Shown: one piece after another, positions 20,104 through 35,317 of the stretch | How the letters are laid out: each line of letters begins with the position of its first letter | How positions within the stretch are numbered: position 1 is the stretch's first letter | Assembly (NCBI GenBank): GCA_050173345.1 | Contig: JBFXKW010000002.1 | Span: forward strand, 79,938 to 143,937 | Length of the DNA stretch: 64,000 nt | Direction of reading: 5' to 3' | Source of the DNA: Alphaproteobacteria bacterium | GTDB taxonomy: Bacteria > Pseudomonadota > Alphaproteobacteria > UBA828 | Notes under the pieces: generated by a model | Told to the model about the DNA's origin: nothing | What the model saw: the letters and a program-made list of their open reading frames with translations, nothing else | Database searches by the model: none | Program-made: the position numbers and the translations under genes

Positions 20104-20838
20104 TCAGGAGAGCAGCTGCATCTCGCAGGCGCGCGCCACGGCCTGAGCACGCGTGGTGGCGCCCATCTTGCGCATGGCGCGCTTGAAGTACACCCGTACC
20201 GTCTCGTGCGAGAGGCCGAGGATGAGCGCGACCTCCTCCGTCGTCTTGCCTGCCGCGGCCCAGCGCAGGCATTCGCGCTCGCGCATGCTCAGCGGCGCGT
20301 CGTCGGAAACCTCGACGAACTGCGGAAAGTGCTCCCGCGCCGCTTCATGAAACACATGAGTGAGGAAAAGCAGGCGCTCCGAATGCTGCTCGATGCGCCG
20401 CGCCCAGCCCCGGTCGCTCTTCTCCCCGACCACGGTGACGAAGCCGAAATGCCCCGGCGTGTGCACGGGCACGGTAAAGCCCTCGACGAGCCCGAAATCG
20501 GCGAGGTAGCGCCATGCCTTAGTCTCGAGCGGCGACAGGTCCGTCCGCCTGCGGACCGAGTCCCAGTCGAACGCGACGCGGCCGTCGAAGCACGCATGAT
20601 AGTAGGGGCATTGCGCGTTATAGAGGTGCCAGGCCTCGTCCCAACCCGGCGGGAAATTGAACGAGCGATGACGGTACACGCGCCAGCGCCCGTCGACGCC
20701 CTGTGCGGCGCCCCTCACGAAGCCGGCGACGAGGCGGTGAACCCCGATCTCGCCCGCCGCCCGTGTCAGGACGCCGAGCGCGGCATCCATGCTGTCGGTG
20801 GCGAAGATCTGCTCGCGAAGCTGCTCACGGGTTTGCAT
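20104..20838 (-). CDS. LuxR-family transcriptional regulator (N-terminal ligand/autoinducer-binding-like domain plus C-terminal HTH)
   Basis: C-terminal 'LSMRERECLRWAAAGKTTEEVALILGLSHETVRVYFKRAMRKMGATTRAQAV' is a canonical LuxR/GerE HTH. A ~170-aa N-terminal domain precedes it. The gene is immediately downstream of the fmd operon. Confidence 0.75.
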   Translation of the reverse strand: MQTREQLREQIFATDSMDAALGVLTRAAGEIGVHRLVAGFVRGAAQGVDGRWRVYRHRSFNFPPGWDEAWHLYNAQCPYYHACFDGRVAFDWDSVRRRTDLSPLETKAWRYLADFGLVEGFTVPVHTPGHFGFVTVVGEKSDRGWARRIEQHSERLLFLTHVFHEAAREHFPQFVEVSDDAPLSMRERECLRWAAAGKTTEEVALILGLSHETVRVYFKRAMRKMGATTRAQAVARACEMQLLS

Positions 20839-20969
20839 GGCCGATTCCCCCGAATTCGGCGCTTTGCGTAGCCGTGCCAGGCCACATGGCGAGGCGCTTG
20901 CCTCAGGGGGAGAGTCAATACCGACAGCCGGCCCGTGACAAGCGTCCTGAACGGCAAACGGCAGCCGCT

Positions 20970-23900
20970 TCAGAACAGTTCGAGCTGCCGGTCCGGCGCC
21001 TTCGGGGCGAGCGCCGCCATGCGGCTGCGCTCGATAAGCGCGGCCTCGATGTCGTTGAGGAACGGCGAGGCCGGAAGATCGCGCACCGCGCCGCGCCAGG
21101 AGCGCTTCTCGGCGCGGCAGAGGAACAAGCGGTCCTTGGCGCGCGTCATGCCGACGTAGAAGAGGCGCCGCTCCTCCTCCTGCGCGGCCGCATCGCCTTG
21201 GCCGCCGAAGCGCAGCGGCAGGATGCCGTCCTCCAGCCCGACGATGAAGACGACCGGGAACTCCAGCCCCTTGGCCGCGTGCAGCGTCAGCAGAGAAACC
21301 CGGTCCGCGCGCGGATCCCAGCCATCCGCCTCGCTGGTCTGCGCCAGCGCATCGGCGAAGCGCCGAACGTCGCCGTCGCAGGTTTCGGCGAGCGCCAGGA
21401 GTTGCCGAAGCACGGACTCCGGCAAGCGCGGGGCAGCTTCATCCGACGCACCGGCGAGACGACCCGCCACCTCCTTCACCCGCGCGACCAGGTCCGCCAC
21501 GCTTGCGTCTGCATCGAGCTGTTGCATCAACGCCTGCACCGCCGGCATCTCGGCGAGCGGCGCGTGGCCGTACTTGCCGAACGGCATGCCGGAGCGCGCC
21601 AGCGCCTCGCAGAGCGGTGCCGCCTGCGCGTCGGTCCGGTACAGCACGGCGAAATCGGCGAACGACAGGCCCGCTGCCCCGCCATGCGCCGCGCGCCCGC
21701 TGTCGATCGAGAAGAAGCTGTGGCCGCCGATCATGGCCTCGATCGTCTGCACCACGAACTCCGCCTCGGCACGCTCGCTGCGCGCAACGTGGATCGTCAC
21801 GCGCTCCTGCATGTCGCGCACCACCTCGCCGATCGCGTCCTCGCTCGCGACCGGCGCGATGACCTGCGACGAGGCGCTGACGATCGTCCCGCTCGAGCGA
21901 TAGTTGCGCGCCAGCCGGAGCGTGGCGGCATCGGGATAGTCCGCCACGAAGCGCGCGAAGCATGACGCATCCGCGCCGCGGAAGCCGTAGATCGCCTGGT
22001 TGGGGTCGCCGATGACGCAGAGATTGGCGCCCGGCGGCGCGAGCAGCCGGAGCAGCCGGTATTGCTGCGCGTCGACGTCCTGGAACTCGTCGACGCAGAG
22101 CCAGCGGAACTGCTCCCGATAGCGCGCCGCCAGTGCCGGGTTCGCCTCCAGCGCCTGCACCGCGAGCCCGACCAGGTCGTCGAAGTCGATCCAGTCGCGC
22201 GCTGCGAGCGCGCGTTGATAGGCCGAGAGCGCCTTGGCCACGTCGTCCTCCGGCGGCGCGCCCGCGCGCTTGGCGAGCGAGATCGCGCGCAGCAGGGAGC
22301 GTGCCTTGCGCGCCGAAACGCCCATCGCCTCCGCGAGCAGCGCCTCGCGCGCGGCCTCGTCGGCGATGCGGAAATCGCCGCGCAGCCCGGCCGCATCGTG
22401 GTGTTCCCTCAGGATGGCGAGCCCCAGGGAATGGAAGGTGTGGACCGGGATCGCCCGCCAGGCCTGCGGCACGAGCGCTGCGAGCCGCTCGGCCATCTCG
22501 GCCGCGGCGCGCCGGGTGAAGGTGATGGCGAGGCAGGCCTCGGGCGGGGCGCCGCATGCCCCGATGAGATGGGCGATGCGATGGGCCAGCACGCGCGTCT
22601 TGCCCGCGCCGGGGCCCGCGACGATCAGGAGCGGCCCGGCGACCCGCTCGGCCGCCTCGCGCTGCGCCTCGTCGAGCGCATCGAGGGTGCCGGTCGCCGG
22701 CGCCATCGGCGCATCGCGAGGCGTGCTTGCCGCCGGCTCGGCTGGCGGGCTCGCCTTCGGCCGGCGCTCAACCTCGCCCTTTGGTGTCAAGGCAGCGCGG
22801 TTCGCCGCTGGCAGCTCGAACAGCAGGCCGCCGCCCTTTTGCCGGCGCAGCTCGTCGGGCTTGAACAGGCGGATCACGCCGTACTCGCCGTCATAGCCCG
22901 GCTCGCGGATCACTTGCCCCGCGCGCAGCCGCGCGATGGCTTCCGCCAGCACCGGCGCGTCGGCCTGCGCGATGTCCTCGACCGGCACGCTCTCCAGGAT
23001 CGCAAGCTCCGGCCCGAGCCGCGCCAACAGGCGCTCATAGCGCTGCCCGACCGACTTGCTCCCGACGCCGGTGCCTTCGAGCTCCGCCAGCATCTCGGGC
23101 AGCGGCACGAGGCTGAGCGTCTTGCCTGCCTTGGGCGGCGGCGTCACCTGATCTGCCGGCCGGTCGGCGAGCGTCTCGATCCGGTGCAGCACGCCGACGG
23201 TCAGCGGCGTGCCGCACACCGGGCAGAGGCCATCATGTGCCCTGGTCTCCGCCGGCGTGAAGCGGACGCCGCATTTGCGGTGCCCGTCCATGTGGTACTT
23301 GCCTTCCTCCGGGAAGAACTCGACCGTGCCGACGAAGCCCGCGCCGGCCTTGAGCCCTTCCAGGATCGCAAAGTAATCGAGCGCGGTGTCGTAGGTCGTG
23401 GCCTCGCGGCCGATCTTGGGCGGCGAATGCGCGTCCGAGTTCGAGACCAGCCGGTAGCGGTCGAGCGAGGAGATGCGCCAGTTCATCTCGGGGTCGGAGG
23501 AGAGCCCGGTCTCGACCGCGAAGACGTGCTCGGCGAGATCGCCATAGCAATCCTCGATCGAGTCGAAGCCCGACTTCGAGCCGAGCGCCGCGAACCACGG
23601 CGTCCAGATATGCGCCGGGATGAGGTAGGAATGCGGGCCGGTGTCGAGCGTGATCTCGAGCAGGTCGCGGGAATCGAGGCCGAGGATCGGCCGGCCGTCG
23701 GACGCCAGATTGCCGATGCGCGCGAGGCTGGCGACCAGCCGGTCGGCGGCGTCCATGTCGGGCACGAAGATCAGGTGATGGACCTTCCTGACCTTGTCGC
23801 CCTTCTTGTAGATGGTGGAGATCTCGACCTCGAGCATGAAGCGCACCGGCCGGCCGGCGCAGGCAGCCGGCGCCTGGCGCTCGACCTCCGCCTCGATCTC

Positions 23901-24104
23901 GGGGCGCAGGCGGAACAGGCCGGGCTCGGCCGGCACCAGGGTTTCCTTGATCTGCGCGCGCCAAGCCGGATGGGTGAAATCGCCGGTGCCGACGATCGTG
24001 ATGCCCTTCTTGAGACCCCACAGCGCGAGATGCTCGAGGTCGGCGTTCTTCGCCGTCGCGCGCGAGTATTTCGAGTGGATCTGGACGTCGACGTGGAAGC
24101 GCAT
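20970..24104 (-). CDS. PHP-family phosphoesterase / Zn-ribbon / UvrD-like SF1 helicase fusion protein (1044 aa)
   Basis: The N-terminal ~300 aa carry PHP motifs (HVDVQIHSKYS, HIWTPWF, SNSDAHS). A Cys4 ribbon follows (GHRKCGV...CPVCGTP). The C-terminus is a UvrD/Rep helicase with Walker A 'AGPGAGKT', 'VDEFQD' and 'TLHAAKGLEFPVVFIVG'. Confidence 0.85.
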   Translation of the reverse strand: MRFHVDVQIHSKYSRATAKNADLEHLALWGLKKGITIVGTGDFTHPAWRAQIKETLVPAEPGLFRLRPEIEAEVERQAPAACAGRPVRFMLEVEISTIYKKGDKVRKVHHLIFVPDMDAADRLVASLARIGNLASDGRPILGLDSRDLLEITLDTGPHSYLIPAHIWTPWFAALGSKSGFDSIEDCYGDLAEHVFAVETGLSSDPEMNWRISSLDRYRLVSNSDAHSPPKIGREATTYDTALDYFAILEGLKAGAGFVGTVEFFPEEGKYHMDGHRKCGVRFTPAETRAHDGLCPVCGTPLTVGVLHRIETLADRPADQVTPPPKAGKTLSLVPLPEMLAELEGTGVGSKSVGQRYERLLARLGPELAILESVPVEDIAQADAPVLAEAIARLRAGQVIREPGYDGEYGVIRLFKPDELRRQKGGGLLFELPAANRAALTPKGEVERRPKASPPAEPAASTPRDAPMAPATGTLDALDEAQREAAERVAGPLLIVAGPGAGKTRVLAHRIAHLIGACGAPPEACLAITFTRRAAAEMAERLAALVPQAWRAIPVHTFHSLGLAILREHHDAAGLRGDFRIADEAAREALLAEAMGVSARKARSLLRAISLAKRAGAPPEDDVAKALSAYQRALAARDWIDFDDLVGLAVQALEANPALAARYREQFRWLCVDEFQDVDAQQYRLLRLLAPPGANLCVIGDPNQAIYGFRGADASCFARFVADYPDAATLRLARNYRSSGTIVSASSQVIAPVASEDAIGEVVRDMQERVTIHVARSERAEAEFVVQTIEAMIGGHSFFSIDSGRAAHGGAAGLSFADFAVLYRTDAQAAPLCEALARSGMPFGKYGHAPLAEMPAVQALMQQLDADASVADLVARVKEVAGRLAGASDEAAPRLPESVLRQLLALAETCDGDVRRFADALAQTSEADGWDPRADRVSLLTLHAAKGLEFPVVFIVGLEDGILPLRFGGQGDAAAQEEERRLFYVGMTRAKDRLFLCRAEKRSWRGAVRDLPASPFLNDIEAALIERSRMAALAPKAPDRQLELF

Positions 24105-24164
24105 GGTCGTCCGCAGCCCGCGATTGATTCAGACGCGTCCGGCTTCCCGGCAATGGAAAAGTAT

Positions 24165-24207
24165 CGTCGAGTCGGCGGCGGCGGGGAAGCGCTATCGGCC
24201 TCCCCGC
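24165..24207 (-). terminator. Candidate intrinsic terminator downstream of the encapsulin gene
   Basis: GC-rich perfect hairpin gcggcgggga(ag…cc)tccccgccgc lies immediately 3' of the encapsulin stop on the transcribed strand. It is followed on that strand by a short ttttcc tract. Confidence 0.4.
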
Positions 24208-24229
24208 CGCCGGCCGGCGAACGCTGGCG

Positions 24230-25048
24230 CTACTTCTTCGCGGCCCTGTAGGAGAGCGGTACCGCGGCCTCGGCGGCGAGCACCCGGAAGGTGAAGCTTT
24301 CCTGCAGATAGAGCCGCACCGTGGTCGCCGTGTGGTCGAGATAGCCGATCGAGAAATCCTGGCCGACCGTCAGCTCGAAATCGCCGCCGCGCAGCGACAT
24401 CACCACCGCGCCGTCGACGCCCGGCGCCCACACCACCGGCCCGTCGAGCAGGCGCTCGACATGGTCGAAGACGCGATAGCCGCCCGATGTCGTGGTCTCG
24501 GTCAGCCCGGTATAGCAGCGCGGCCCGAGCGCGATGCCGTAGGGGCCGGCGACGCCGTCATTGCGCAGCTTGCTGAGCGCCTCCGCGACCACGATGGGAT
24601 AGCGCGTATAGTCGTCGGTGAGGGTGAGGCCGGCCTTTTCGGCGGCCTCGCCGATCCCCTTTATGCCGGCGCCCGGGTGGCCATGAAAGACGGCGGCGTC
24701 CTCAGCGATGGCGATGGCGCGCGCCGCCGCGATCACCGGCTCCAGCTCGGCGTCCTTGCTGCCGCGCTCGATCGCCTCGAACTCGCTGCGCGGCAGTTCG
24801 AACGGAACGCGCAGCTCGACCAGCGGCTGAACACGCCGGAGGCGGCTCTCGATGCCCTCGCGCCAGGACGGCTTGACCGGCTCGGTCCGCCCGAGGCTGA
24901 CCGCGCAGGCATCCCAGCCCAGCGGGCCAACGAAATCGACGAGCTTGCGCGCGGCGAGCGTCAGCTTGAGCGTGCGCCGCGCCTCCTCGTCGATCTCCTT
25001 CCACGCGGCCGCGGAGATCGGCGCCAGTTCGCGAAGCAGGTTGTTCAT
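24230..25048 (-). CDS. enc: Family-1 encapsulin nanocompartment shell protein (linocin-M18/HK97-fold)
   Basis: The N-terminus 'MNNLLRELAPISAAAWKEIDEEARRTLKLTLAARKLVDFVGPLG' is the conserved family-1 encapsulin start. 272 aa. It lies 4 nt downstream of a cargo gene with a targeting peptide. Confidence 0.85.
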   Translation of the reverse strand: MNNLLRELAPISAAAWKEIDEEARRTLKLTLAARKLVDFVGPLGWDACAVSLGRTEPVKPSWREGIESRLRRVQPLVELRVPFELPRSEFEAIERGSKDAELEPVIAAARAIAIAEDAAVFHGHPGAGIKGIGEAAEKAGLTLTDDYTRYPIVVAEALSKLRNDGVAGPYGIALGPRCYTGLTETTTSGGYRVFDHVERLLDGPVVWAPGVDGAVVMSLRGGDFELTVGQDFSIGYLDHTATTVRLYLQESFTFRVLAAEAAVPLSYRAAKK

Positions 25049-25052
25049 GGCG

Positions 25053-25421
25053 TCACGCTCCCCTCAGGCTGCCGATGCCGAGCGAGCCGTCGCCCGCCTC
25101 GCCGCGGCCATCCCCTGTATCCGCTTCCTCGATCTCCAGGATGGCGCCTTCGGCGAACAGGTAGGTCTTGAGCATCTCGTTCAGCACCGGGTCGTGGCGG
25201 CGCAGCCATTCGAGGAGCATCGACGCGTGCTCCTTCTCCTCGTCACGGTTGTGCGCGAGGATGCCGCGCAATTCGGTATCGCCCGCGACGTCGACCCGCT
25301 GGTCGTACCAGTCGACGGCCTCGAGCTCCTCTCGAAGCGAGACGATCGCGCGGTGCCGGTCGAGCGTCTCGGGCCTGAGCTTGCCCCGCTCCTCGTGAAG
25401 TTGTTCGCTCGAATCAGTCAT
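25053..25421 (-). CDS. Encapsulated ferritin-like cargo protein (EncFtn/Flp) with a C-terminal encapsulin targeting peptide
   Basis: Start is the ATG at 25421 (MTDSSEQLHEERGK…), preceded by GGAGGGAGAG. The ferritin-like di-iron motif 'ILAHNRDEEKEHASMLLEWLRR' is closely similar to Rhodospirillum EncFtn. The C-terminal '…GDGSLGIGSLRGA' matches the GSLxIGSL cargo-loading peptide consensus. Confidence 0.8.
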   Translation of the reverse strand: MTDSSEQLHEERGKLRPETLDRHRAIVSLREELEAVDWYDQRVDVAGDTELRGILAHNRDEEKEHASMLLEWLRRHDPVLNEMLKTYLFAEGAILEIEEADTGDGRGEAGDGSLGIGSLRGA

Positions 25422-25605
25422 TCTTCTCTCCCTCCGGAAATGGCTGGCACGCGATGAGCGACAGACACGCAGGTATATTGTGACGAGCAGCGCGGCTTCC
25501 TCGCCACGCCGTGCGCCCCGGGGCATTATGCCGCAATTCGGCGGTCGATAACGTTGAACGCTTGGGCCGTGTCGCGGGTTTCTTTTTGCCCGACGGCGTT
25601 CCCGG

Positions 25606-28600
25606 TCATGCCGGCTCGGCGTGCGGGGGGTCTCCGCCGTCGCCGACCATCACGGCCCGCCGGAGCGTGCCGGGTTGCCGCAGCAGCGCCTTGCGGGCCT
25701 CCCATTGCGACGCCGGGTCCAGCGTCTCCAGGTATTGCACCTCGCCGCCGGCCAGGACGGCCAATGGCAGGCCGTCGCGATAGAGCAGCCGGTTGCCGGC
25801 CAGGGTCGAGAGCTTCGCCGAGCCTGCGAGGATGCCGATCAGGTTGAGCGGATCGGCGCCGGAGAGCGAGACGAACTCGCCGGTCTCCGGCTTCCGCCTC
25901 GTCTCGCGCAGCCTGCCGATGGCTTCGGGCAGCGCGAACTGCTCGCCGGGGAAGCCCGCGACGAAGCGGCCGCCCCGGATTTCGCCGCGCGCCTCGAGCC
26001 GGCGATAGACCCGCAGCAGGTCGCGCCAGGGCGGCAGCCAATCCGCCTCGCGGCCGGTCAGGCGTCCGAACACGACGCCGTAGCGGCGCAGCAGCGTGCG
26101 CGCGATGTGCTCGACCGCGTTCGCCGCATCCTCGGCCGTGCCCGGCCGCGAGCGACGCGCCAGCGCCCAGCGCCCGGCATTCTCCATGTCGAACACGGCG
26201 GTGCGATGGCGCCGCCGCGCCCCGGCGAGCGGCCGGCGCCGCGCCGCCGGCACGAGCAGCGCGCGCAGGCCTGCGAAGCTGTCCGAATTGACGAGGCCGA
26301 GCGCGACCAGTTCCGCAAGCGCCTCCTCGACCTGCGTGCGCAGCAATCCCGTACCCTCGACCAGCTCGTCGAAGAACAGTGCGCCGCGCTCGCGCAGGCA
26401 TTGCATCACGGCCTGCGCGCGGACGCTCGGCCGCGCCGTTTCGTCGGCCGGTGCCGGCGGTCCCCAATGCCGTGCGTGACGCCGCGCCAGCAAGGCGATC
26501 GGCGTGGTGCGCACCGGCGAGACGCCGCGCTCGCCTTCGCCCGTCCGCGCTGCACGCGGGCGCAGCCGCGCCCACGAGATGCGCCCGGCAAGGCAGAGAT
26601 CGTCGAGCCAGGCCGGGTCGTAGCCAGCGAGGCGTGCCGGCAGGATTTCGCTCTCCCACGCTCCGGCCGGCGCCTCGAAGCCTTCGAGCTGCCCGACGAT
26701 CGCCTCGACCGCCTCCGGGCCTTCCATGCGCGCGTCCGCGGTCACGCGCTGCCAGCCGAGCAGGAAGCGCAGGAAGTCGCGCGCCGAGACCGGCTCGATC
26801 TCCGCGCGCAGCCGCTTGATCGTGTACTGGTGGATGCGCGCGAGCAGGCGGCGCTCGCACCATTCCTCGCCGGCGCCGAGCGGGCTGAACCGGCCGCGCA
26901 TGGCGAAGCCTTCGGCCTCGAGCGCGGCGAATGCCGAGGCGAGCTCGCGCGCCGCGATGCCGAGCGCTTCCGCGAGAGCGCCCTGCTCGACCGGCCCCTG
27001 GCCTTCGAGCCGGCCGCGCACGATCTCGACCAGCGCCTCGTCGCGCAGCCATTCCCGCGCATAGGCCTCGGGCGCGGCGATGTCCGGCTCGGCCGGTACA
27101 TCGGGCCACAGCGCGCGGAACTGCGGCAACCGTTCGGCCGCGACCCAGAGCGCCTTGCCCGGCGCGCCCAGCCGGGTGACGCGCTTGTCGCGCGCGAGCT
27201 GCGCCAGGAATTCGTTCCAGCCCGGCCCGGCCTCCGCCTCTTCCTCGTTCAAGGCGCCGAGCCAGACCAGCGCATCGTGCAGCTCGTCGGCGTTGCGCGC
27301 ATCGGGCCACGCCTCGGCGCGCACGCGCGTGATGGCCTCGGCATCGAGCCGGCCGAACTCGGCCGCGCTCTCGGGCCCGGCCCAGTGCCGGCTCATCACC
27401 GCCTGGGTGCGGCGCTCCTCGAGCGGCGCATCGTCGAGATAGGCATAGGGCCGGGCGGAGAGCACCTCGAGCGCGAGCGGCGAGGGCTGGGTCAGGTCGC
27501 GCGCCACCACCTCGATCTCGCCGGCCTCCAGCCGGGCGAGCAGCCGCTCCAGGCCCGCGACGTCCATCGCCTCGGTCAGGCAGTCGCCAATGGTCTGGTT
27601 GACCAGCGGGTGGTCCGGGATTTCGCGCTCGCCGACCAGGTTCTCGGCGCAGGCGAGCTGATCGGGGAACACGGTGGCGATCAGGTCTTCAGCCTCCATG
27701 CGCACGAATTGCGGCGGCACCTTCTTGCCGCCGCGGAAGCGCGGCAAGGCGAGCGCGACGCTCGCCACCCAGCGCCAGCGCGTCAGGAACATCGGCGCGT
27801 CCAAGAGCGCCTGGATCAGCACGTCTCTCGCGCTCGCCGCATGCAGATAGCCGCGCACCTCGGCGAGCTCGAAGCTGTGCGCCGCGGTGAGCGAGAGTAC
27901 GATGTTGTCCTCGGTCGCGGCCGCCTGAAGCTCGAAGTTGAAGCGCCGGCAGAACCGCTTGCGCAATGCCAGGCCCCAGGCCCGGTTGAGCCGGCTGCCA
28001 TAGGGCGAATGGATGACGAGCTGCATGCCGCCGGCCTCGTCGAAGAAGCGCTCGAACACCAGCCGCTCCTGCGTCGGCAGGCAGCCGAGCGCCGCCTTGG
28101 CCGCGGCGAGATAGTCGGCGAGCTCGCGCGCCGGGGTCTCCTCGATACCCAACTCCTCGACCAGCCAGCACACCGCGTCGTCGCCGTCCAGACGCGCGGC
28201 GACCTCGGCACGCAGGCGAGACACGGCGAGCGACAGCTCGTCGCTGCGGCCCGGCGCCTCGCCCAGCCAGAACGGGATGGTCGGCGCCAAGCCATTGGCG
28301 TCCTCGACGCGCACCGTGCCGCGGTCGACGCGCAGGATGCGATAGGCATGATTGCCGAGCAGGAAGACGTCGCCGGCCAGGCTCTCGACCGCGAAGTCCT
28401 CGTTCACCGTGCCGATGAACTGGCTCTCCGGCTCGAGCAGGACGCGATAGTCGGCGTTGTCGGGAATCGCACCGCCCGAGGTCAGCGCGGTCAGCCGCGC
28501 GCCGCGCCGGCCGCGCAGCACGTGATTGACCGCATCGTGATGGATCAGCGCGCCGCGCCGGCCGCGGCCGGTGGCGAAGCCCTCGCCGAGCATCCGGACG

Positions 28601-29976
28601 ATCGCGTCGAAGTCTTCGCGCGGCAGCGCGCGATAGGGCCAGGCGCGGCGGAGCAGCGCATAGAGATCGTCCTCGCGCCATTCCTGCGCCGCGACCTCGG
28701 CAACGATCTGCTGGGCCAGCACGTCGAGCGGCCGCGTCGGGATCGAGAGGCGATCAAGCTCGCCCTGCCTGACGCTGCCGATCAGCGCCGCGCACTCGAC
28801 CAGCTCGTCGCGCGAGAGCGGGAAGAGGCGCCCCTTGGGCGTGCCGCCGACCGCGTGGCCGGAGCGCCCGACCCGCTGCAGGAAACTCGCGATCGAGCGC
28901 GGCGAGCCAAGCTGGCAGACCAGCTCCACCTCGCCGATGTCGATGCCGAGCTCGAGCGACGCGGTCGCGACCAAGGCCCGCAACGCGCCGCGCTTGAGGC
29001 GCTGCTCGGCGTCCAGCCGGTGCTCCTTGGCGAGGCTGCCATGATGGGCGGCGACCTGCGCGGCATCCAGCCGCTGCGACAGGTGATGCGCCACCCGCTC
29101 GGCCATGCGCCGCGTGTTGACGAAGATCAGCGTGGTGCGGTGCGCCTCGATGAGCTGCGCGAGGCGGTCATAGGTCTGCTCCCAGACGTCGTTCGACATC
29201 ACCGCTTCGAGCGGCGCGGGCGGGATTTCGAGGGCGAGGTCGCGCGCCCGCTGATGGCCGGTGTCGACGATCCTGCAAGCGCCGGCCGCCTCGCCGGCTG
29301 GCCCGGCGCCGGTCAGGAAGCGGGCGACCTCCTCGATCGGCTTCTGCGTCGCGGAGAGCCCGATGCGCTGCAGCGGGCGGCCGCAGAGCGCCTCCAGCCG
29401 TTCGAGCGACAGCGCGAGATGCGCCCCGCGCTTGTTGGGCGCGAGGGCGTGGATCTCGTCGACGATCACGCTCCGCGTGGTGTGCAGCATGGCGCGGCCG
29501 GATTCCGAGCCGAGCAGGATATAGAGCGATTCTGGCGTGGTCACCACGATGTGCGGCGGCCGGCGCAGCGCCCGAACACGGTCACCCGCCGGCGTGTCGC
29601 CGGTGCGTACCCAGGTGCGGATTTCGACGTCGGGCTGACCTTGCGCGCGCAGCGCATCGCGGATGCCGGCGAGCGGCGCCTCCAGATTGCGCTGGATGTC
29701 GTTCGACAGCGCCTTCAGGGGCGAGACGTAGACGACCCGCGTCTCGTCGGGCAAGTCGCCCACGAGGCCGTGCCGGGCCAGCTCGTCGAGCGCGGCGAGG
29801 AAGGCGGCGAGCGTCTTGCCCGAGCCGGTCGGCGCCGCGATCAGCACGTTCTCGCGCGCGCGGATCGCCGGCCAGGCCTGCGCCTGCGCCGCGGTCGGCG
29901 CCGCGAAGCGGCCTTCGAACCAGGCGGCGACCGCCGGATGGAACAGCGTCTTCAGGTCGAGGGCGGTGGCGTCCAT
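25606..29976 (-). CDS. lhr: Lhr-family ATP-dependent DNA helicase (large helicase-related protein, 1456 aa)
   Basis: Walker A 'APTGSGKT', DEIH box, SAT, and the Lhr-core WH/beta-barrel/C-terminal extension. The size matches Lhr. The entire antisense strand also forms a 1478-aa ORF, which is a GC artefact. Confidence 0.9.
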
Positions 29977-30145
29977 GCGTTCAAGGATAGCCGCACCGGA
30001 CCAGCGACGACAGCAGCGACGTCACGGCGATCCCGCGGGGTTCTGCGACCAGGGTAGGATGGAATCTAAGCCGCGACCCGACGGAATCAACGCGACCGTC
30101 GGCGCCCCACAACCGGGCGAACGAGGCGGCTATCGCCGGATTCGG

Positions 30146-31417
30146 TTAGGCGGCGTTAGGTCGGGCGATGCGCGGCGACAGCACGCGGAGCGCGGCATCC
30201 ACCATCTCTGGATCGTACAGGCGGCCGCGATTGGCGCGGAGCTCTTCCAGGGCCTTCTTCAGCCCCGGGGCGCGCCGGTAGAGGCGATCGGACTCCATGG
30301 CGTCGATCACGTCCGCGATGCCGAGGATCCTGGCCTCGGGCAGGATGGCATCGCCCTTGATCCCCTCGGGGTAGCCCGAGCCGTCCATGCGCTCGTGATG
30401 CTGATAGGCGATCATGGCGACCGGCCAGGGGAAATCGACGCGCCTCAGCACGTCATAGGAGAGCCGGGGATGCGAGCGAGTAACGGCCATCTCCGACTCG
30501 CTGAGCGGCGTGGACTTGGTCAGGAACTCCATGGGCACGGCGATCTTGCCGAGATCGTGCACCAGCGCGGCCAGCCGCAAGCCCTCGATCCGCTGCTCGT
30601 CCATGCCCGCCTCGCGCGCGATATCGCAGGCGAGCGTCGCGACGCGCTCCTGATGACCCTGCGTATAGGGATCGCGCGCCTCGGCCATGGCGCCTATCGC
30701 CTCGACGAATTGAATCAGCGCGAGCTGCAGGCCGCGGAAGCGGGAACGCGATTGCGTCTCGGCCCGTTCGACCGCGGACATGTCGTGGCCGATGCCGAGA
30801 ATACGCTGCACCGCGCCGTCCGGCCCGCGCAGCGGCGTGCTCCGCAGCAGGAACGGGGTGGTGCCGTGCTTGGTGAGGATGTGGCAGCGAAGCTCGGCGG
30901 CGGCGCCGGACCGCGCCTCGTCGAACGCCTGAGCGGCCGCGGCGCGATCCGCCTCCACGACCAGGTCGAGGCCCGAGACGCCTTTCAACTGGTCCCGCGT
31001 CCGGCCGAGCATGCGTTCGGACGCCTGATTCAACCGCACGATCCGGCAGCCGGCGTCCAGCTCGAACACCGGCTCCGGCAGCGCGTCGATCAACCGGTCT
31101 TCCGATATCGCCTGAGAGCGCAGCGCCGAATCCTTGGCGCTGGACTGGCGAAAGATCAGCCGGGCGCCGAAGAAGAGGAGCGTCGCGGTCGCAGCGACGA
31201 AGAGCCAGCCCTTGATGGATTGCGCCAGGGTCAGCGTCTCGACATCGGTGTCGACAAAGAAAAGGAAGAGCGCGCGGTCCGACAGGGCGATCCAGATGGT
31301 CGCGACCGCGGCGTAGCCCGCGGCGATGAGCAGCGACCATAAGGTGTGTGGATGGCGGGCGAGGCTCGCCAGCACGCCGTTGCGAGCAGTGAAGCGGTCG
31401 GCTCTGACCAGACTCAC
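30146..31417 (-). CDS. Membrane-anchored PAS-domain HD-GYP phosphodiesterase (c-di-GMP signalling)
   Basis: Two N-terminal TM helices, a PAS-like region, then 'HHERMDGSGYPEGI' HD-GYP signature with HD metal ligands (HDLGK). Confidence 0.8.
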   Translation of the reverse strand: MSLVRADRFTARNGVLASLARHPHTLWSLLIAAGYAAVATIWIALSDRALFLFFVDTDVETLTLAQSIKGWLFVAATATLLFFGARLIFRQSSAKDSALRSQAISEDRLIDALPEPVFELDAGCRIVRLNQASERMLGRTRDQLKGVSGLDLVVEADRAAAAQAFDEARSGAAAELRCHILTKHGTTPFLLRSTPLRGPDGAVQRILGIGHDMSAVERAETQSRSRFRGLQLALIQFVEAIGAMAEARDPYTQGHQERVATLACDIAREAGMDEQRIEGLRLAALVHDLGKIAVPMEFLTKSTPLSESEMAVTRSHPRLSYDVLRRVDFPWPVAMIAYQHHERMDGSGYPEGIKGDAILPEARILGIADVIDAMESDRLYRRAPGLKKALEELRANRGRLYDPEMVDAALRVLSPRIARPNAA

Positions 31418-32604: not shown

Positions 32605-33091
32605 CTCGCAGTCTCCCTCCCGCCGGCATGCCCGGCCCCACGCCACGGCACCACCCGACGCCTGAACGGACACGGTAGGGCAGCGGCGAGGACGGGGTCA
32701 ATCGCGGCGGGAGGGGCGAAATTCGAGGCAAGCGCGAGGCAGGCGGGCGACATGCGGCAATAGTCGCCTGCATTCACGCCTGATCGACCGCACGACCACC
32801 CCGCGGACCGATAAGATGGCGCTCGCGCTCAAGGGATGCCGCCACAACTGCGCGGCGGCTGGCAAATCGCAAGGCCGCTAGCATCGCCTATTGACGAGCC
32901 CCGCGTTCAATGGTCCACAGCCGGATGATCGTGGAGACCGGGCGCACATGTATAAAATATAAGCACGGCTTTTATCATTGTTTTTCCAACATAATCTATT
33001 CGAATCGCACGAATTCCTGAGAACGCAACAAAATACTCATACCCTGAACGCCTCGCGTGCGCTTTGCTCGCGAGTATTCGGGAGATCCACC

Positions 33092-34237
33092 ATGACAACT
33101 CAGCAGCACGTTTCCATTCCCAACGATGTGCGCACCTGGGCCAACGACGGTTCCCCCATTCCGGATTGGGTACGAACGCACATAGTGGACAAGATGACGC
33201 CCAACGGTACTTTCCTCCTCTCAACGCCTATTGGGACCGCCAGGGTTCATCTCGGCAATATCGTGATTGAGCATTGTGGCGAACTATGGTCCCGAACACC
33301 CGATGAGGTTTCCAAACTCATTGAAGGACTCCAAGCGGAAACCACGCCGGCCGCAGCCGCGATCGGACCGGGCAAATCAGCCCAGTTCGGAACCAGAAGT
33401 AAGTCGGGGAAAGGCAAGAAGCGCGGCACCCAACGCAAAATGGCTTTCCGCCTACCCATCGGCTCCATGCCGAGCATCGAATGGGTGCATACCTCGGAGC
33501 TTGTCGTCGACCAATCCTACCAACGCTCTATCGACAACGAAGGATCGCGCCGGCTGATAGCTAGCATCGCAGCCAACTTCGATTGGCGGCTCTGCGCGCC
33601 GCTCGTCGTCTCGCGGCGTGCAGATGGCTTGAAAGTCATCATCGATGGGCAGCATCGCTGGGCAGCAGCTGTTCGCCGAGGTGATCTACCTCAGCTGCCC
33701 TGCTGTCTCTTCACCTATGCCAGCCCGGAGGATGAGGCGCGTATGTTCATTGTCGCCAACAGGGCGCGCAAACCGATGAACCGCTTGGATGACTTTCATG
33801 CTGCGCTTGCCGCAGCGGACGAGGATGCATTGGAGATCCTGCGCCTGGTGACCGAGGCTGGGCTGACGATCGCGCGGCATACATCCTTCACGGCATGGAA
33901 GCCGGGAGAGGTGGCCTTCACGTCGTCCATCGCGACCGCGCTCCGTCGGCATGAAGACGCGGTGGTATCAGCGGCGCTGACATGCATGGCCGAGGCATTC
34001 GAGGGGCAATCCCTGACCCATGGCGCATCAGTGTTCGGAGCCTTGATCAAAATCTTCGCCAATCCACCCGAGGGTTTCGACCCCGACAGGCTCGTGCCGG
34101 TGCTGCGCCGCTTCGACATGGCGAGCTTAGCCAAAATCGTTCGAGATCAAAGAGGCGTGGATGCTCGGGTAAGCACCGTATTCACGGCCATAGTAGAAGC
34201 GTTGGCCAACCTCGATGATGATTCCCCGATGGCATGA
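33092..34237 (+). CDS. ParB/Srx-fold DGQHR-motif protein (ParB-like nuclease domain) of unknown function, island-encoded
   Basis: ATG at 33092 after GGAGA. The central domain 'LVVDQSYQRSID…LIASIAANFDWRLCAPLVVSRRADGLKVIIDGQHRWAAA' carries the ParB/DndB-type DGQHR signature. It is flanked by unrelated N- and C-terminal regions. GC content of the gene and its flanks is clearly below the window average. Confidence 0.55.
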   Translation: MTTQQHVSIPNDVRTWANDGSPIPDWVRTHIVDKMTPNGTFLLSTPIGTARVHLGNIVIEHCGELWSRTPDEVSKLIEGLQAETTPAAAAIGPGKSAQFGTRSKSGKGKKRGTQRKMAFRLPIGSMPSIEWVHTSELVVDQSYQRSIDNEGSRRLIASIAANFDWRLCAPLVVSRRADGLKVIIDGQHRWAAAVRRGDLPQLPCCLFTYASPEDEARMFIVANRARKPMNRLDDFHAALAAADEDALEILRLVTEAGLTIARHTSFTAWKPGEVAFTSSIATALRRHEDAVVSAALTCMAEAFEGQSLTHGASVFGALIKIFANPPEGFDPDRLVPVLRRFDMASLAKIVRDQRGVDARVSTVFTAIVEALANLDDDSPMA

Positions 34238-34403: not shown

Positions 34404-34829
34404 CTATCTTGAAGCCGAAGTTCCGTTCGGGGCGATCAAAGAGAGCTTGGGGAAATAGGTCCGATAACGCGCCGCATCCCTCGTCAATAGCGAATATCCG
34501 GCTACAGCCGCGTGGGCGCCTATGAAGAAGTCCGGAAGCGGCAAACTCTTTGTTCCGCTTCGCTGCCGATAGGCGAGGAACGCCTTGCCAGCGAGAAAGG
34601 CCGCTTCGTACGGGATGGACTCACGATCGAACATGGTTTTCGGGAGCGCGGCATCGAGATCTTCGATGCGTGAATATCGAATCGACACCTCAGCATAGAT
34701 GACCGGATTGATGACGAGGCGGTACCGATCGGCGGCGCGCTTGAGGGCCTCCGCGGACCACGCAAGCCAACGCGCGTCTTCCGTCATGACGTCAAGAAGA
34801 ACATTAGCGTCAACCAGGACGGCTGTCAT
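34404..34829 (-). CDS. vapC: PIN-domain ribonuclease toxin VapC
   Basis: 'MTAVLVDANVLLDV' with the first acidic PIN residue. 141 aa. Its start abuts the stop of the upstream antitoxin gene. Confidence 0.8.
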   Translation of the reverse strand: MTAVLVDANVLLDVMTEDARWLAWSAEALKRAADRYRLVINPVIYAEVSIRYSRIEDLDAALPKTMFDRESIPYEAAFLAGKAFLAYRQRSGTKSLPLPDFFIGAHAAVAGYSLLTRDAARYRTYFPKLSLIAPNGTSASR

Positions 34830-35060
34830 TCAGTCATCGCGGGTCAGCGCCATTATGGCATCGGTGCTCATCGACACGTCGCCGCGGCCCCGCAGATGGG
34901 CAACGAAACGAGCGCCGCGACCGCCCTTGCCGGCCTTGGCACGAACGATACGCACAACCTTGCCGTCGAACTCGAACTCCACCTCGGTATGGGGCAACAG
35001 GCCCGCCCGTTCACGGATATCGACTGGGATAGTCACCTGCCCCTTCGACGTAATGCGCAT
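34830..35060 (-). CDS. vapB: AbrB/SpoVT-type antitoxin VapB
   Basis: 76 aa. 'ITSKGQVTIPVDIRERAGL' swapped-hairpin AbrB motif. The stop is adjacent to the vapC start. Confidence 0.7.
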   Translation of the reverse strand: MRITSKGQVTIPVDIRERAGLLPHTEVEFEFDGKVVRIVRAKAGKGGRGARFVAHLRGRGDVSMSTDAIMALTRDD

Positions 35061-35227: not shown

Positions 35228-35317
35228 TGGCGGAGGGGGCGGGATTCGAACCCGCGATACGTGTTACCGTATGCACGCTTTCCAAGCGTGTGCCTTAAGC
35301 CACTCGGCCACCCCTCC
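35228..35317 (-). tRNA. tRNA-Ser (anticodon GGA), 90 nt with a long variable arm
   Basis: The reverse complement reads GGAGGGGTGGCCGAGTGGCTTAAGGCACACGCTTGGAAAGCGTG…GGTTCGAATCCCGCCCCCTCCGCCA. It has a 7-bp acceptor stem, D-arm GCCGAGTGG…AAGGC, anticodon loop TTGGAAA, T-arm GGTTCGAATCC and an encoded CCA. Confidence 0.85.

Follow-up and report, generated by a model that had tools for sequence, protein, structure and literature searches.

The question raised by the locus

Does an encapsulin cassette that lies between the genes of two large helicases belong to a conserved arrangement linking iron storage to DNA repair, or is it simply their neighbour? The first-pass annotation had called the placement unusual and had offered both neighbourhood and co-regulation as explanations. 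In the window, by which we mean the whole analysed stretch of 64,000 nucleotides, lhr, encFtn, enc and PHP-uvrD share one strand, with outer gaps of 184 nt and 125 nt. The helicase flanks on a single strand that had been claimed are borne out by their domains, and the strand is the minus strand. The proposed spacing of cargo and shell holds as well, as the encFtn stop codon (TGA, 25055-25053) and the enc start codon (ATG at 25048) leave a 4-nt spacer. All in all, each sequence statement of that annotation is confirmed. The features of the locus are as follows.

29976..25606, minus strand: Lhr-type helicase gene, 1456 aa, with Lhr winged-helix domains and DEAD_assoc
25422..25605, minus strand: lhr-encFtn intergenic region, 184 nt
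25426..25435, minus strand: Shine-Dalgarno-like GGAGGGAGAG, 4 nt 5' of the encFtn ATG, from the raw sequence
25421..25053, minus strand: encFtn cargo gene, 122 aa, encapsulated ferritin-like cargo (predicted ferroxidase)
25056..25094, minus strand: targeting peptide GDGSLGIGSLRGA of EncFtn, from alignment with GDGSLGIGSLKG of Rhodospirillum rubrum
25048..24230, minus strand: enc shell gene, 272 aa, family-1 encapsulin shell with HK97 fold
24177..24211, minus strand: GC-rich stem-loop, 19 nt past the enc stop, from folding against shuffles
24104..20970, minus strand: PHP-UvrD fusion gene, 1044 aa, N-terminal TIGR00375/MJ0043-type PHP region and UvrD helicase

We consider it very probable that encFtn and enc make up a self-contained operon, a family-1 (classical) encapsulin system of the EncFtn/Flp type, and that lhr and PHP-uvrD are unrelated neighbours outside the system. 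The identities of the genes, the catalytic and targeting residues, the tight pairing of encFtn with enc and the lack of conserved helicase synteny were observed directly. The system is a known one and is correctly annotated, as the shell protein already carries the NCBI name "family 1 encapsulin nanocompartment shell protein"; an identical shell protein is found in an NCBI MAG of an Alphaproteobacteria bacterium (GCA_050249575.1, contig JBFWQG010000010.1). Past this correct annotation, the significance of the locus is small.

By precomputed Pfam matches, the neighbours up to 10 kb from the shell gene encode a PAS-HD protein, a class-IV aminotransferase, a LuxR-type regulator, an amide-type ABC transporter, a formamidase/acetamidase and a MazE/PIN pair, and among these matches there is no iron or oxidative-stress gene. 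The LuxR-type regulator (20104-20838, minus strand), directly 3' of PHP-uvrD, combines an autoinducer-binding domain with a GerE HTH. It may be a LuxR solo, since none of the genes called up to 10 kb from the shell gene has a typical autoinducer-synthase Pfam match. On the other side, a tRNA-Ser(GGA) gene (35228-35317, minus strand) is followed by genes for MazE (34830-35048), a PIN toxin (34404-34829) and DUF6551 (32978-34237, plus strand). The PIN and DUF6551 genes have a GC3 of ~0.65 against 0.81-0.95 in the surrounding genes, and the segment 32978-35317 resembles a small islet that was acquired horizontally at the tRNA gene.

The EncFtn cargo

The claimed 122-aa EncFtn cargo with a targeting tail is fully supported. 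The protein matches Pfam PF22277 (EncFtn-like) with an E-value of 6.2e-38 over profile positions 1-85 of 85, and NCBIfam TIGR04535 (encapsulin-associated ferritin-like) with 143.1 bits, above the cutoff of 125; by these two models it has the two-helix ferritin domain of EncFtn-like proteins. It contains ILAHNRDEEKEHASM and its C-terminal end is GDGSLGIGSLRGA. The best PDB match is the encapsulated ferritin of R. rubrum (E 3e-40), to which the cargo is 68% identical over aligned query residues.

Previous work on R. rubrum EncFtn assigned Glu32, Glu62 and His65 together with Tyr39 to the ferroxidase centre (PMC5012862, He et al. 2016), Glu31 and Glu34 to an entry (secondary) site, and H57, E61 and E64 to a proposed exit site (PMC5012862). 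In the present cargo E31, E32, E34, W38, Y39, E62 and H65 are all seven identical to R. rubrum with the same numbering, which by residue identity provides the ferroxidase-centre and secondary-site ligands of the class. The exit-site residues H57, E61 and E64 are also identical and lie inside the motif HNRDEEKEH. Ferroxidase activity and a metal-dependent decamer are thus predicted for the cargo on the strength of orthology.

The tail is a regular property of such proteins, as an LxIGxL motif is present within the last 25 residues in 81 of the 83 shell-adjacent EncFtn homologues considered below. A search of all six frames found no other targeting tail in the window that would indicate a second cargo. 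The position of GGAGGGAGAG as a ribosome-binding site 4 nt before the ATG supports the 122-aa start of encFtn. We rejected a longer, 157-aa version (ORF from 25526): its first 35 residues have no match, the Pfam match begins only at residue 42, and the public gene call likewise gives 122 aa.

The encapsulin shell

The 272-aa shell protein starts with MNNLLRELAPISAAAWKEIDEE, the conserved start that had been noted for family 1, and its assignment to that family is secure. It matches PF04454 (Linocin_M18) with an E-value of 3.3e-89 over profile positions 1-253 of 253, which makes it a full-length HK97-fold protein of the classical family-1 kind, and it reaches 314.9 bits with the NCBIfam equivalog NF041155 encap_f1, whose cutoff is 100. 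The match covers residues 4-265 of 272 and no further Pfam domain is present; it is this lack of an added N-terminal domain or fusion that separates family 1 from Family 2 and from the Flp-fusion and cytochrome-fusion types. The shell gene also has a dedicated adjacent cargo with a C-terminal targeting peptide, encFtn, 4 nt 5' of it.

Encapsulins have the HK97 fold in common with phage capsids, with which they have sometimes been confused (PMC8346489), a circumstance that would favour reading the shell gene as a remnant capsid gene of an HK97-type prophage instead of an encapsulin. We give this reading a vanishingly small probability: the encap_f1 equivalog is matched at three times its cutoff, the dedicated cargo with its targeting peptide directly precedes the gene, phage genes are absent within 10 kb, and a compositional island test puts the GC content of the cassette at 66-70%, like that of the neighbouring genes.

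The best PDB match of the shell is the type 1 shell of R. rubrum (9ry4, E 3e-99), with a full-length alignment and 63% identity over aligned query residues. For cargo and shell alike, the Pfam and PDB matches lie far outside what chance would give. Among other shells that are experimentally T=1, those of Klebsiella and Mycobacterium match at ~1e-75 and that of T. maritima at 1e-43, whereas EncA of Myxococcus xanthus and the 6nj8-type shell match at 1.6e-10 and 2.8e-9, respectively. The R. rubrum shell forms 24-nm compartments (PMC5012862). Because the present shell is much closer to the T=1 shells than to EncA or the 6nj8-type, a ~24-nm T=1 particle is its expected product, and icosahedral self-assembly and cargo loading are predicted through orthologues at 63-68% identity.

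Proposed function

By orthology with R. rubrum, we suggest how the two products might work together. EncFtn would form iron-bridged dimers that build an annular decamer, with di-iron ferroxidase centres at the dimer interfaces, and its C-terminal peptide SLGIGSLR would dock it on the shell's inner surface. Sixty copies of the shell protein would self-assemble into a T=1 icosahedron, ~24 nm in size. Fe(II) entering through the shell pores would be oxidised by EncFtn and deposited as a ferric mineral in the lumen, which may both store iron and guard against Fenton chemistry. As a canonical EncFtn encapsulin, the system suggests that the MAG with the identical shell protein (GCA_050249575.1) probably has an encapsulin-based iron store.

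encFtn-enc as a unit in related loci

We compared the locus with 84 non-redundant loci around Enc homologues, namely 80 from GTDB genomes (59-70% shell identity) and the four closest public relatives (75-79%). This set spans Alpha-, Beta- and Gammaproteobacteria as well as Actinomycetota, most of its loci have 10 kb on each side, and it covers relatives with usable flanks that are no closer than ~80% in shell identity. In 83 of the 84 loci encFtn immediately precedes the shell gene, and the remaining one is cut by a contig end. A 4-nt ATGA overlap is the commonest form of the encFtn/enc junction (42/83 loci), and other loci, too, have the 4-nt gap of the present pair. The pair is best read as a compact, self-contained iron-storage module that relocates freely amid unrelated neighbourhoods.

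The best GTDB shell matches (~70%) are not confined to Alphaproteobacteria and include Gamma- and Betaproteobacteria (Competibacteraceae, Burkholderiales, Casimicrobiaceae). For the adjacent Lhr, the few close relatives with a name are all alphaproteobacterial (Xanthobacteraceae, Hyphomicrobiales, Dongiaceae). The mixed classes of the shell relatives, set against the alphaproteobacterial Lhr relatives, are consistent with horizontal mobility of the encFtn-enc cassette.

Gene order around the helicases

If the placement of the cassette had a meaning, the same gene order might be expected to recur. With Lhr, the PHP region and the UvrD region of the window as tblastn queries (E <= 1e-5), none of the three was found within 10 kb of Enc in any of the 84 loci, and the neighbour genes of the four closest shell relatives are entirely different. 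On the PHP-UvrD side, we used 80 metagenome loci in which the PHP region has a homologue (52-71% identity), and in about 60 the upstream sequence extends for at least 1.5 kb, sufficient for detecting a shell gene; Lhr, EncFtn or Enc lies within 10 kb of PHP-UvrD in 0/80. On the Lhr side, neither Enc nor PHP-UvrD lies beside Lhr in the three closest relatives examined (77-78% identity), whose flanks all differ. The order lhr-encFtn-enc-PHP-uvrD is thus not conserved from any of the three sides (0/84 Enc, 0/80 PHP-UvrD and 0/3 Lhr loci).

The PHP-UvrD fusion (20970-24104, minus strand) joins an N-terminal PHP-type region (TIGR00375 / PF27218 MJ0043_C) to a UvrD/PcrA-type SF1 helicase, and its scores with the equivalog models of PcrA, UvrD and Rep stay well under their cutoffs. 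UvrD is fused directly downstream in ~70 of the 80 metagenome loci with the PHP region, which indicates that the PHP-UvrD fusion is a widespread gene.

We also took a Pfam census of the genes immediately beside encFtn-enc, 80 upstream and 79 downstream, using a GC3-based gene caller whose predictions for the contig of the window agreed with the public gene calls. No recurrent partner family emerged on either side. The commonest families are LysE (6/80), aldehyde dehydrogenase (5) and MR_MLE (5) upstream and LysR regulators (9/79) downstream. DNA-repair families amount to one LigD_N and one RNase HII among the 80 upstream genes, and there is none among the 25 commonest downstream families listed.

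Individual loci do carry repair-type genes near the pair. Two of the four closest shell relatives have divergent LigD-type genes just 5' of encFtn (L086:1496-4016 and L087:8475-9394; also L088), which encode a 3'-phosphoesterase and an ATP-dependent ligase, with Prim-Pol additionally in L086; in a further locus (L084), DprA-TopA lies near encFtn. A general association of encFtn-enc with DNA repair, for which these LigD and DprA-TopA cases were considered, was dropped in view of the census.

In the literature, a full-text search did not find encapsulin, EncFtn and helicase together, and a large survey of encapsulin systems describes Flp/EncFtn operons without mention of helicases or DNA repair (PMC8346489). 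As the arrangement is absent from every locus examined on the Enc, PHP-UvrD and Lhr sides, simple neighbourhood is favoured. The placement is indeed unique among these loci, as the word "unusual" had implied, and it looks like a chance neighbourhood, with no sign of a meaning in these data. Of the two explanations first offered, neighbourhood is therefore the one that the absent synteny favours, whereas co-regulation finds no support in comparative genomics. We regard this negative outcome as useful, in that the position between two large repair helicases, striking as it is, leaves no trace that comparative genomics could detect.

Transcription of the cassette

A scan of positions 20500-30500 for sigma-70 promoters gave no consensus match, the 184-nt lhr-encFtn gap included, and a scan of the same region for intrinsic terminators gave matches at chance level, none of them relevant on the minus strand. 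The RNA of the lhr-encFtn gap folds no better than its shuffles (z +0.36). In the whole window an Rfam scan returned one tRNA only, with no riboswitch or sRNA near the operon. The lhr-encFtn gap is long enough that it is presumed to hold the cassette's own promoter, a putative element inside 25422..25605 from which encFtn-enc would be transcribed independently of the flanking genes.

Downstream of enc, a 73-nt segment that contains the stem-loop at 24177-24211 has a folding energy of -43.2 kcal/mol (z -4.49), and 0/200 shuffles were as stable. With no U-tract directly after it, this stem-loop does not qualify as a canonical intrinsic terminator; it possibly marks the 3' boundary of the encFtn-enc transcript or stabilises it, and is at most a non-canonical terminator. 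We also considered the stem-loop as a repeated, REP-like element of the window and set the idea aside, as 4 matches against 1.9 expected are not significant.

The lack of a detected promoter consensus, together with a source that is a MAG and known from sequence alone, might suggest a cassette that is intact in sequence and nonetheless silent or decaying in its host. We judge this highly unlikely, because neither ORF is truncated, every functional residue is conserved, the GC3 of 0.81-0.90 is typical of expressed host genes, and a strong RBS is present.

Since the four genes lie on one strand and the scan detected neither a canonical terminator nor a promoter at the two junctions, read-through transcription is possible, and with it a quite different view of the locus: the four genes might form a lineage-specific oxidative-damage module, in which encFtn-enc would share its transcription or regulation with lhr and/or PHP-uvrD and the cell would induce iron sequestration and DNA repair jointly. 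The gaps of 184 and 125 nt are short, and the divergent LigD genes that two of the closest relatives have 5' of EncFtn would fit such a view. Moreover, lhr mutants of E. coli are sensitive to oxidative stress (PMC10953399), which makes the theme of co-regulation plausible; comparative genomics, however, lends it no support. The arrangement recurs in none of the Enc, PHP-UvrD and close Lhr loci, DNA-repair families are not enriched beside the pair, enc is set apart from PHP-uvrD by a very stable hairpin, and the full-text search did not bring encapsulin, EncFtn and helicase together. We therefore think such a module very unlikely. It is also very improbable, in our estimation, that in this uncultured alphaproteobacterial lineage a mobile encFtn-enc landed between lhr and PHP-uvrD and was then recruited into a shared transcription unit, induced by oxidative stress, that couples iron sequestration with the repair of oxidative DNA damage. 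Our preferred reading remains that of a self-contained encapsulin operon beside two unrelated helicase genes.

Comparison with known systems

The closest characterized system is that of R. rubrum (Rru_A0973/Rru_A0974; PDB 5da5, 33bf, 9ry4), whose host is also alphaproteobacterial and whose two genes have the same order. Besides the 68% identity of the cargo, the 63% identity of the shell and the seven shared residues E31, E32, E34, W38, Y39, E62 and H65, the two systems have near-identical tails, GDGSLGIGSLRGA here and GDGSLGIGSLKG there. They differ in that the linker from the EncFtn core to the tail is ~9 residues shorter here, that the present shell has no 5-residue insertion near residue 64, and that the genomic neighbours are different; the present locus, moreover, is known from its sequence alone. 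Haliangium ochraceum (PDB 7oe2, 7odw) likewise has a family-1 shell and a decameric EncFtn cargo with a C-terminal localisation sequence, but it is more distant (cargo E 3.4e-34, shell E 1.6e-68) and its host is deltaproteobacterial. M. xanthus, with EncA and EncB/C/D (PDB 4pt2, 7s8t), also has an iron-storage encapsulin with ferritin-like cargo, but EncA forms a larger T=3/T=1 shell, and its several cargo proteins are encoded partly elsewhere. The cargo studied here reaches 18 bits with the EncB-specific model, far from its cutoff of 210. Thus, of the two systems that had been proposed for alignment, Myxococcus offers only remote homology (shell 1.6e-10, EncC 1.7e-06), whereas R. rubrum aligns well in both cargo and shell.
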